A stretch of 46,281 bases of DNA from a virus. Positions 824 through 41,387 of this stretch are shown in pieces; position 1 is the stretch's first letter, and each line of letters opens with the position of its first letter. The position numbers and the translations under genes are program-made. The stretch lies in the IMG/VR virus record IMGVR_UViG_3300017971_000396; one strand, given 5' to 3'. The notes below the pieces were generated by a model. The model was not told the DNA's origin. It saw only the letters and a list, made by a program, of their open reading frames with translations, and did not search any database.

Positions 824-1138
824 ATGAAAACTAGAACCGGATTTGTAAGTAATAGTTCATCTTCAAGTTTTATTCTTAGTACAACTTTATCTGCTGAAGA
901 AGTTAAAGAGAGTTTCATTGAAATTCTTAATGGTATGTCTAAGCTTAGTCAAAATACTATTTACGAAGATATTGCAACACAGCTTAAAGATGATGTAGCT
1001 ATGTTTGATGTTGAAAATCATAAAGATGGTGTTGCAGTTTATGATACTTATGATAATGGCATGCCATTTATTATTCGTCAAATTATTGAAGATATGTGCG
1101 AATATACTGGCGGTTATGGTCATGATATTGAATGGTAG
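824..1138 (+). CDS. small protein of the Ser-rich N-terminal-tag family (member 1)
   Basis: Begins MKTRTGFVSNSSSSSFIL, the N-terminus shared by five ORFs in this window. The ATG at 824 directly follows the stop of the upstream gene. Confidence 0.6.
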   Translation: MKTRTGFVSNSSSSSFILSTTLSAEEVKESFIEILNGMSKLSQNTIYEDIATQLKDDVAMFDVENHKDGVAVYDTYDNGMPFIIRQIIEDMCEYTGGYGHDIEW

Positions 1139-1147
1139 GAAATATTA

Positions 1148-1672
1148 ATGATTTATTGTATACTCGGCCCTAGTGGTGTTGGAAAAACCACAGTTGCATT
1201 AAGATTAGGACTTCCACAAATTATAAGTACTACAACGCGAGAAGTGCGTGAAGGTGAGATTCCTGGTAAAACTTATCATTATGTAGATCAAGATACTTTC
1301 TTTGAGCTTGATCTTCTTGAACGTATAGAATATGATAAAGACTGGTATGGTCTTCAAACAGAACATGTTCAAGATGCACTTGATACTGGTAAAGACCACT
1401 ACGTTATATTGAATGCTCTAGGTTGTTCAATAATGAAACGTATGTTTATGGATGTTCGAGTAATATATTTGAAGGCTCCCCCACGTGATTTAGTTGGATT
1501 CATGAAGAAACGTGGTGATTCTGATAAAAAGATAATTGGAAGACTTTGTACTATGATTGAACAAAAAGAATTTAGTAATGATCATATTGCTGATCTTATT
1601 ATTGATTCTATAAGTCTTGATGATATCGAAAATTGTATTAAAGCATTTATCAAGAATGGTGGTGATTTTTAG
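1148..1672 (+). CDS. gmk: guanylate kinase-like P-loop kinase
   Basis: GPSGVGKTT Walker A, STTTRevReGEipGktYHYVdqdtF, and downstream YG...TG motifs laid out as in bacterial Gmk. Confidence 0.65.
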   Translation: MIYCILGPSGVGKTTVALRLGLPQIISTTTREVREGEIPGKTYHYVDQDTFFELDLLERIEYDKDWYGLQTEHVQDALDTGKDHYVILNALGCSIMKRMFMDVRVIYLKAPPRDLVGFMKKRGDSDKKIIGRLCTMIEQKEFSNDHIADLIIDSISLDDIENCIKAFIKNGGDF

Positions 1673-1703
1673 TAACCGTTAACAAATAAAAAGGAGATAC
1701 CAC

Positions 1704-2159
1704 ATGTATCATTCCGCAGACAAAAGAGTAAAATCACTCTTTAAATTCATGGAGAAGAAAGTTGAATTCTTCAAATGGAAAAATGAACGCAATTATGGTG
1801 GAATTCACACTTCCAAGAAAGCATCCATTTGGATGGATGTTCATGAAAATGACATTGAAATTGGTTTGAAAACCGATGGAAAGAATTTATCTTTTAAAGA
1901 GATTGCTATTTATCTTAATAGCAAGGGTTTGCTTAATACTCCTCTTTATAAAGGTTATCAATTGAATATCATGCCAGCTCCACGTAAGAAAGATGGAGTA
2001 CATGTAACTCTTAAAATTCCAATTACAAATTGGGATGTACTATCTGATGAGAATCTACGTGATGATCTTATTATCATCTATACAATTCTTGTTTTGAAAT
2101 TTAAAGGTTTGGTTAAACCACGTAAACTACGTGAATATAATAAAACAAAAGGTAATTAA
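1704..2159 (+). CDS. hypothetical protein
   Basis: 151-aa ORF following an AAAGGAG RBS. Confidence 0.5.
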   Translation: MYHSADKRVKSLFKFMEKKVEFFKWKNERNYGGIHTSKKASIWMDVHENDIEIGLKTDGKNLSFKEIAIYLNSKGLLNTPLYKGYQLNIMPAPRKKDGVHVTLKIPITNWDVLSDENLRDDLIIIYTILVLKFKGLVKPRKLREYNKTKGN

Positions 2160-2163
2160 CAAA

Positions 2164-40351: not shown

Positions 40352-40402
40352 GTTTCACCTTAGGGTTTGTGTTAATATTATGGTCAAATTTAACCGTTAT
40401 TC

Positions 40403-40735
40403 TTAATCTTCAAAATGTTCTTCCCAATAATCTTCATCAATCAATTCAGTGTATTCTGGAAAATGACCAAAAGTCCATTGGAAAATAGATTTCAACTCTT
40501 TATAAGTTGTTTCAGAAATTTCATGAAAAGATGGCGTATTTACTGAACTTGGATCGATGGATTCATTAGTACCAACATACCATTCATCACAAAGACCATC
40601 ATCAGCCATTGCTTGATTATATTTTTCAATATCTTCGTCAAGCTCTTTCTTTTCTTTTTCTGTTAAAACTTTAACACCGACTACATCCATTTCATCGGCC
40701 CAGTTATCATCAAAAGTTGCAATATAATATTTCAT
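40403..40735 (-). CDS. acidic hypothetical protein
   Basis: Start set to MKYYIATFDD with an AAAGGAAAAAGGAAG RBS. The track ORF extends to 40810. Confidence 0.45.
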   Translation of the reverse strand: MKYYIATFDDNWADEMDVVGVKVLTEKEKKELDEDIEKYNQAMADDGLCDEWYVGTNESIDPSSVNTPSFHEISETTYKELKSIFQWTFGHFPEYTELIDEDYWEEHFED

Positions 40736-40878
40736 TTTGCTTCCTTTTTCCTTTTTCGATTTTAAATGTAATTTTATACTTTGGTAAAATATCACATAAG
40801 AAGTATGCAATTAATGCTGGTATTGCACTGGCAATAAATATAACTACAAATGCATGTAATGTTTCTCTTAGAGATTCA

Positions 40879-40940
40879 CTCATAATTATCCAAATTGAAC
40901 AAGATATTTAAGTTTACATTGATAAACATTAGGAATAATC
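40879..40940. repeat. 62-bp direct repeat (copy 1) duplicating the PARP 3' end and gene junction
   Basis: Near-identical to 41722-41783. On the - strand it encodes ...IIPNVYQCKLKYLVQFG* out of frame with the upstream gene. Confidence 0.8.
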
Positions 40941-41387
40941 CTAGTAGTTATCGTTATCTAGTGAGATATAAGAATCTGGACCAAAGATAAATTGAATTAA
41001 TGTATCTCTTGAATCAAACATTTCTAAATTATCGTCACCGATACTTTGGTGATCAATATATGCGTAACAGCCTTCTTCATCAATACCATTACCAAGCCAC
41101 CATGTAATTTCTTTAACGCCATAATATTCTTTAATAACATCTTCAAGCATTTCAATATATCCAGGAGAAGATAAATATTTTGCTTGAAGATATGAGAAGA
41201 TAATTTTTGACCCAGTATCATAAATTTCTTTCGGACCCCAACCAAACTCAGTTTCACCAAATGTATTATCAATGAAGATTTCATAATCATATACACCTAA
41301 AACTGGTAAATTTAATTGGCATGATTTACATACATAAATAAACGAACTACTAGAACTATTACTTATAAATCCACTTCTACTTTTCAT
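40941..41387 (-). CDS. small protein of the Ser-rich N-terminal-tag family (member 5)
   Basis: Begins MKSRSGFISNSSSSSFIYVC. Lies between the PARP and MVP genes. Confidence 0.6.
   Translation of the reverse strand: MKSRSGFISNSSSSSFIYVCKSCQLNLPVLGVYDYEIFIDNTFGETEFGWGPKEIYDTGSKIIFSYLQAKYLSSPGYIEMLEDVIKEYYGVKEITWWLGNGIDEEGCYAYIDHQSIGDDNLEMFDSRDTLIQFIFGPDSYISLDNDNY

Follow-up and report, generated by a model that had tools for sequence, protein, structure and literature searches.

The DNA analysed here, a stretch of 46,281 nucleotides from the IMG/VR virus record IMGVR_UViG_3300017971_000396 (hereafter the window), corresponds to positions ~140,380-186,660 of the 206,884-bp metagenomic contig ena:ERZ27256798:k141_1546401, which looks like a T4-like large phage and carries genes for a gp44 clamp loader, PhoH, a sigma factor, RNase T, NAD ligase, a major vault protein (MVP) homologue and a poly(ADP-ribose) polymerase (PARP). 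Five open reading frames (ORFs) of the window, encoding tagged proteins 1 to 5 (Table 1), open with the peptide M-K-x-R-x-G-F-[VI]-S-N-S-S-S-[SC]-S-F-[IV], referred to below as the tag, and are otherwise unrelated. The original prediction had named five ORFs with a common Ser-rich N-terminus, and all of them are present: a six-frame scan of the window returns exactly five matches to the core GF[VI]SNSSS[SC]SF, each at the start of a tagged ORF, against 4.5e-8 expected by chance and none in 200 shuffles. In agreement with the same prediction, the proteins diverge beyond the peptide, sharing no common sequence in alignments past residue 18, and the Ser codons vary among the five copies (AGT, TCA, TCT, AGC and TCG, with TGT for Cys), indicating that the tag is conserved at the peptide level. 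A purine-rich Shine-Dalgarno-like stretch lies 5-10 nt 5' of each of the five tag ATGs. Two of the ORFs open further upstream (ATG 788 and TTG 5090), while the gene caller and all homologues start at the tag Met. For the three copies inspected (those at 824, 5102 and 40941), product lengths agree with those of independent gene calls made on the source contig, and the start is the same wherever coordinates were mapped.

In the databases and literature searched, the peptide did not match a motif of known function. All five window proteins match PHROG phrog_7397, which represents one body family and lacks functional annotation, at its positions 1-18 to 1-30, i.e., over the tag alone. There was no credible match for the tagged proteins in Pfam or NCBIfam, nor in PADLOC for the two proteins tested, and no curated family or literature description was found in searches by literal motif and by topic; the system is apparently an undescribed form of viral protein tagging. 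Among cultured phages, nothing was retrieved by megablast of the window or by tblastn of tagged protein 5 and two other body families. Individually, tagged protein 1 has no relative of its C-terminal part in the IMG/VR-derived set, tagged protein 2 carries a Cys-rich stretch (CKCDKCG) after the tag, the stop of tagged protein 3 adjoins the start of an IMP dehydrogenase-like gene, and position 14 of the tag is Cys in tagged protein 4, as in ~2% of tags. Tagged protein 5 belongs to a widespread family with 33 full-length metagenomic homologues and invariant motifs of its own (EFGW, YIDHQS and a C-terminal DNDN). Its AlphaFold2 (AF2) model, which is confident overall (pLDDT 84, pTM 0.83), has no match in the PDB or BFVD, and residues 1-12 are disordered, with scores below 50, which fits an exposed tail.

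A search for further members, proposed with the original prediction, shows that the tag extends far beyond this phage. A profile of the five paralogues found 308 small proteins in a set of 5.8 billion proteins, and an exhaustive HMMER search over 1.84 billion representatives located the tag, always at residue 1, on 6,853 protein clusters (50% identity). By means of a degenerate DNA pattern it was found in more than 119 IMG/VR stretches and in 94 stretches from genomes and metagenome-assembled genomes (MAGs) of many phyla, frequently in tandem arrays of tagged genes. The motif begins exactly six residues after the initiator in ~450 of 460 instances, including those initiated at GTG or TTG, for which there was no selection in the search pattern. 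Seemingly internal tags in database proteins correspond to two tandem tagged genes fused, the second copy restarting with MK.R.GF; for these proteins (P0259, P0261, P0262, P0264, P0265, P0282, P0315 and P0365), stop-codon recoding, read-through and gene-calling artefacts are possible causes.

Conservation within the tag was assessed in 296 sequences from loci collected around the enzyme described below. Position 1 is Met in 93% (the rest being Val or Leu of alternative starts), followed by Lys at position 2 (97%), Arg at 4 (100%), Gly at 6 (93%), Phe at 7 (99%), Val at 8 (94%), Ser at 9 (97%) and Asn-Ser-Ser at 10-12 (100% each). Position 13 is Ser (91%) or Thr (8%), position 14 is Ser in 84% and mostly Thr, Ala or Cys in the remainder, and positions 15 and 16 are Ser (97%) and Phe (96%). 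Positions 1, 2, 4 and 6-16 are near-invariant, positions 17-18 are hydrophobic, and conservation is lost abruptly at residue 19, none being detectable from there onward; the first hydrophobic strand of the body directly abuts the tag without a spacer.

The bodies carrying this peptide are as diverse as the peptide is constant. The 612 distinct tagged proteins recovered range from 19 to 691 aa (median ~129 aa) and are acidic, with a median isoelectric point (pI) of 4.65 and 91% having a pI below 5.5. When the tag is removed, 592 of them form 174 clusters, of which 122 are singletons, i.e., at least 174 C-terminal families, among them a zinc ribbon and several distinct families. Comparison of the 13 largest clusters by hhalign gives a probability below 20% in 76 of 78 pairs and never reaches 50%, and the tag thus sits on unrelated protein bodies. 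Many body families also have strongly conserved extreme C-termini (..SHH, ..GTRSC, ..GAGRNG, ..DNDNH, ..EEAWHD and ..GSIGGW, in loci L003-L295), and both termini could act jointly.

What recurs beside the tag is one enzyme. When all neighbouring ORFs were clustered in 214 loci seeded by the tag (3,286 ORFs), a radical S-adenosylmethionine (SAM) enzyme family was present in 95 loci, and the runner-up family in 13; 91 of 100 enzyme ORFs are co-oriented with the nearest tagged gene. The reverse test, in which 80 IMG/VR loci were seeded by the enzyme alone and tags were counted within 10 kb, found tagged genes in 73 loci (1-13 per locus, median 4). Every one of these 303-308 tags is on the enzyme's strand, and the first frequently begins less than 100 bp from the enzyme stop. 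No third gene family recurs in the enzyme-seeded loci, be it a protease, an exporter or transporter, or a protein with a RiPP recognition element (RRE), RiPPs being ribosomally synthesised and post-translationally modified peptides. Furthermore, tag variants follow enzyme clades: the 12 loci whose enzyme has the full CX2CX5CX3C motif contain the variant VTNSSSTS exclusively (17 of 17 tags); in the 108 loci with a reduced-Cys enzyme, VSNSSSSS is dominant (291 of 394 tags) and VTNSSSTS is not among the eight commonest variants.

The enzyme, found in related loci and not in the window, is an uncharacterised protein of ~346 aa (~350 aa) that matches the Radical_SAM (PF04055, 1e-12) and SPASM (PF13186, 9e-7) domains and contains the invariant radical-SAM triad C66/C70/C73 as well as C258, C287, C305 and C349. 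Its family comprises 2,386 clusters at E <= 1e-20, all with generic names, and it scores far under every curated NCBIfam maturase cut-off. The AF2 model (pLDDT 96.6) places a small N-terminal four-stranded sheet ahead of the barrel, and its top PDB match is SuiB bound to the SuiA peptide (E 1.6e-9, TMq 0.70), followed by DesII, TigE, EpeE, PqqE and BtrN, several of which are peptide maturases. In two loci (L009 and L060; Table 1), Hint-type inteins (...VYNFHC...HNC) split the Cys-triad motif of the radical-SAM gene; inteins typically sit in conserved, important phage genes.

Both components occur in cultured T4-like phages (RB43 and Klebsiella slopekviruses). The enzyme (~40% identity) occurs in 172 of 50,697 cultured phage records, nearly all of them enterobacterial T4-like phages such as Klebsiella slopekviruses and RB43, and tag carriers among cultured phages were reached only by way of this enzyme search. 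In Klebsiella phage PMBT1, the whole genome of which was read, the enzyme is gp194 and the tagged genes number exactly two; these, gp238 and gp243, share its strand and lie 19-24 kb from it. Homologues of these two tagged proteins are present in 175 and 174 records, with genus counts equal to those of the enzyme.

It is probable, though by no means certain, that the 18-residue tag (consensus M-K-h-R-x-G-F-V-S-N-S-S-S-S-S-F-h-h) is the recognition and modification site of this phage radical-SAM maturase with its SPASM/twitch auxiliary-cluster domain. The tag would be a flexible tail ahead of each protein's own unrelated folded domain. We infer that this tail docks on the enzyme in a register fixed by the free N-terminus together with K2 and R4, and that the invariant N10-S15/F16 stretch would then be modified by way of a 5'-deoxyadenosyl radical. 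The reaction could be cross-linking of side chains or macrocyclisation, oxidation of Ser to formylglycine, or epimerisation; given the reactions reported for the closest characterised maturases, cross-linking, epimerisation and alcohol oxidation are plausible. A single enzyme would serve many accessory proteins in the manner of a RiPP maturase, but with whole proteins as its substrates, probably as a means of stabilising or arming proteins for anti-defence or for the early takeover of the host.

Such a system would resemble the RiPP radical-SAM/SPASM maturases (SuiB/SuiA of streptide, WgkB, EpeE/YydG and TigE) in its auxiliary-cluster C-terminal domain, with a fold closest to that of SuiB, and in the arrangement of adjoining same-strand substrate genes, often many, that combine a conserved recognition part with a hypervariable rest. 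It would share with the prochlorosins the logic of many precursors. Unlike RiPP systems, however, it is phage-borne, and its substrates would be folded proteins, ~100-200 aa long and reaching 690 aa, where RiPP precursors are short peptides. Their conserved part always begins at residue 1 and probably includes the residues that are modified. No gene for a leader protease, an exporter or an RRE partner recurs, and the enzyme falls well short of the curated maturase cut-offs. Whole-protein modification at a short motif by a radical-SAM/SPASM enzyme is known from the anaerobic sulfatase-maturing enzyme (anSME), which converts Ser or Cys to formylglycine, and from QhpD/QhpC, and Ser is likewise a plausible target here. 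In contrast to anSME, one enzyme would act on hundreds of unrelated proteins, anSME models are not among the enzyme's best matches, and the formylglycine motif (C/S)-x-(P/A)-x-R was looked for in the tag and is not there.

Several observations weigh against modification of the tag by this enzyme. Most enzyme members have neither a canonical RRE domain nor the full seven-Cys SPASM, so that the mode of substrate binding is conjectural. In about half of the tag-seeded loci, the flank available contains no enzyme, 6-7 of the 80 enzyme-seeded loci lack a tag, and shared ancestry partly confounds both co-occurrence and covariation. The source contig itself has no radical-SAM gene at positions 130,619-196,291, the 66 kb covered here (the window and 10 kb on each side), and these flanks hold no further tags. 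In addition, none of the best 120 of the 2,386 enzyme homologues is from this contig, and none of the enzyme-seeded loci has more than two genes in common with the window. The distances in PMBT1 indicate that tagged genes can be remote from the enzyme, as the window tags would likewise have to be from any enzyme gene. A relative of tagged protein 5 does lie beside such a gene elsewhere: in L341, a 205,959-bp phage contig, a homologue with 45% identity overlaps the stop of a 372-aa radical-SAM gene and is followed by tagged genes of the zinc-ribbon and ..SKH types.

The tag could instead merely recruit the enzyme, with modification taking place elsewhere, e.g., at the family-specific conserved C-terminal ends (..SHH, ..GTRSC, ..GAGRNG, ..DNDNH, ..GSIGGW) that many tagged families possess. 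This would accord with RiPP precursors, in which the modified part is usually not the leader. However, the bodies are unrelated folds of 70-690 aa and hence offer no common second site, an invariant polar run such as N-S-S-S-S-S is unusual in a pure docking helix or strand, and the tag abuts the first body strand directly, all of which makes a recruitment-only role unlikely.

A further possibility concerns what the modification of the tag might be for. The modified Ser-rich tail could be a reactive or cross-linked handle, an address label that loads diverse effectors into virions or vault-like MVP particles or attaches them covalently to host targets, with the Avs-linked bacterial copies described below as its defence-side counterpart. 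This extension is speculative and improbable as it stands; its consequence would be an enzyme-written, phage-wide protein-delivery code.

The original prediction had read the tag as a capsid, encapsulin or vault cargo signal. Its description of a true terminal tag on otherwise unrelated proteins is upheld, whereas the cargo interpretation is not. On this view, the tag would serve for docking to the prohead or to a vault-like MVP shell, so that the proteins are packaged or injected, with no radical-SAM chemistry involved. A common terminal peptide on unrelated, polymorphic phage proteins does recall the capsid targeting sequence (CTS) of the T4 internal proteins IPI-III, the tag is also found in T4-like phages, and a terminal element marking a set of clients is shared with encapsulin cargo peptides and the vault INT domain of vPARP. 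As had been predicted, one member lies within the MVP/PARP cluster, the gene of tagged protein 5 standing between those for PARP and MVP, and four other contigs have a tagged gene ~1 kb or less from an MVP homologue. The association between tag and MVP is nevertheless weak. A tagged gene lies within 6 kb in 4 of 40 phage MVP loci, the other 36 having none, versus 73 of 80 radical-SAM loci within 10 kb, and MVP is present in 3 of 296 tag- or enzyme-seeded loci. Moreover, no shell (including encapsulin), scaffold or prohead protease gene recurs near the tags as the radical-SAM/SPASM maturase does; the tag has no sequence resemblance to encapsulin or vault signals, and no conserved cleavage site or linker follows it. 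The tagged proteins are predominantly acidic. A scaffold-binding peptide should co-evolve with its scaffold, but the tag is near-invariant across unrelated phage lineages and occurs in chromosomal Avs-linked cassettes of bacteria as well, and the ~8-kb loci inspected contain no virion genes. Cargo loading by itself is therefore distinctly unlikely, while packaging that follows modification of the tagged proteins is conceivable; no virion proteome of a tag-bearing phage was found in the literature searched. Two specific signals were sought and rejected: a regex of the MKTYQEFIAE type for a T4-like CTS has no match in the window or PMBT1, and a prohead-protease site (L/I-x-E as in T4; S/A/G-x-E as in phiKZ-like phages) is missing, with no Glu in the tag and no conserved residue from position 19 on.

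In the five MVP contexts, window included, the tagged gene lies 0.5-1 kb from MVP and the body families vary (Table 1). At least 40 IMG/VR phage contigs contain a full-length MVP homologue with ~40% identity, and no close relative of the MVP of this phage was found in IMG/VR.

Could the tag instead be a degron, stabiliser or targeting motif that binds some universally conserved factor of the host, for instance a protease, a chaperone, the ribosome or the clamp? Its near-invariance across phages with hosts of many phyla does suggest a very conserved partner, and its strict N-terminal position is reminiscent of N-terminal degrons. However, the tag matches none of the known host-factor motifs considered (ClpX N-motifs, clamp-binding, Tat and prepilin), and a host partner would not account for the way in which the tag is coupled in operons to the radical-SAM enzyme and covaries with it; this enzyme would itself be the conserved partner. 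A host factor is thus very improbable. No more credit can be given to the idea that the tagged proteins form a single, very divergent superfamily, the N-terminus being its best-kept structural or catalytic element and the radical-SAM neighbour incidental. Several members have, by eye, an acidic D/N-rich strand near the C-terminus, and the invariant motifs of the tagged protein 5 family are enzyme-like; yet the hhalign comparisons find no relation between the bodies, whose folds include a zinc ribbon in one family and an alpha/beta fold without known match in another. The disorder in the AF2 model falls in the tag, and the neighbourhood statistics are far from incidental, so that this idea ranks as the least probable of all. 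Finally, a PP-loop (SGGxDS), a flavodoxin- or P-loop-like phosphate loop, a vWA MIDAS, a metallophosphatase N-terminus, SGNH block I, a Tat signal and pyruvoyl-type Ser-Ser self-cleavage were rejected because they fit neither the sequence, nor the disordered tail, nor bodies this diverse. A class III (type IV) prepilin signal was likewise dropped: G6-F7 would match its G|F cleavage site, but the residues that follow are the polar S-N-S-S-S-S-S, where a prepilin has a hydrophobic helix of ~20 residues bearing Glu at +5.

If the tag is indeed written on by the radical-SAM enzyme, thousands of "hypothetical" phage accessory proteins (the 6,853 clusters) would be clients of one uncharacterised enzyme, including proteins of cultured T4-like phages of Klebsiella, Enterobacter and E. 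coli that are used in therapy work. Leader-guided radical-SAM maturation would be widened from peptides to whole proteins, constituting a new viral post-translational modification, and the portable 18-residue tag with its cognate enzyme could become a tool for protein engineering. Hypervariable early-gene arrays and the Avs-adjacent bacterial cassette would become more accessible to functional study. The model of tag and enzyme is directly testable in RB43 or slopekviruses.

This bacterial cassette is conserved in four loci (L122, L163, L138 and L178; Acetatifactor muris, a Lachnospiraceae MAG, Veillonella parvula and Lachnobacterium bovis). It consists of a metallo-beta-lactamase (MBL)-fold protein (Avs1a/LmuA-like, 3e-62), a protease-STAND NTPase (Avs2-like, 2e-16), a 140-aa protein, a tagged 137-aa protein with the VTNSSSTS variant, a full-SPASM radical-SAM enzyme and a 304-aa protein. 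On the defence side, too, the tag system may be in use.

Table 1. Features of the window and of related loci, with coordinates in the sequence named.
Feature	Sequence	Position (strand)	Length	Tag	Start of protein
Tagged protein 1	window	824-1138 (+)	104 aa	824-877 (codons 1-18)	MKTRTGFVSNSSSSSFIL
Tagged protein 2	window	5102-5575 (+)	157 aa	5102-5155	MKTRTGFVSNSSSSSFII
Tagged protein 3	window	23902-24237 (-)	111 aa	24184-24237	MKSRNGFVSNSSSSSFII
Tagged protein 4	window	28698-29102 (-)	134 aa	29049-29102	MKSRSGFVSNSSSCSFVL
Tagged protein 5	window	40941-41387 (-)	148 aa	41334-41387	MKSRSGFISNSSSSSFIY
Gene call matching tagged protein 1	L216	10584-10898			
Gene call matching tagged protein 2	L216	14862-15335			
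MVP homologue	window	37886-40351 (-)			
PARP	window	41729-43042 (-)			
IMP dehydrogenase/GMP reductase-like	window	22711-23901 (-)			
GDP-mannose 4,6-dehydratase-like	window	21340-22320 (-)			
Paralogue without Pfam match	window	13859-15184 (-)	~430 aa		
Paralogue without Pfam match	window	16244-17527 (-)	~430 aa		
NAD-dependent DNA ligase	L216	877-2943			
PspA/IM30 homologue	L216	5423-6127			
Ligand-gated ion channel	L216	6232-7278			
MVP context	L316 (=L021)	5069-6001			
MVP context	L314 and L332	5082-6001			
MVP context	L139	2478-1714			
MVP context	L335 (=L028)				
MVP context	window	41387-40351			
Intein-split radical-SAM gene	L009	ORF end 4638 (-)			
Intein-split radical-SAM gene	L060	ORF end 9520 (-)			

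The MVP homologue and the PARP protein that flank tagged protein 5 have the domain compositions Vault_3 plus MVP_shoulder and WGR-PARP_reg-PARP, respectively. Just upstream of the window, L216 also encodes an NAD-dependent DNA ligase, along with a homologue of PspA/IM30 and a ligand-gated ion channel resembling glutamate receptors (SBP_bac_3 plus Lig_chan). The IMP dehydrogenase/GMP reductase-like gene comes directly after the gene of tagged protein 3 and has the GDP-mannose 4,6-dehydratase-like gene downstream of it; IMP dehydrogenase-like genes recur in 6-7 tag- or enzyme-seeded loci. The window also encodes two paralogues of ~430 aa that share 42% identity over 450 aa and have no Pfam match, and a relative of these is present in an Izimaplasma MAG locus (L192).

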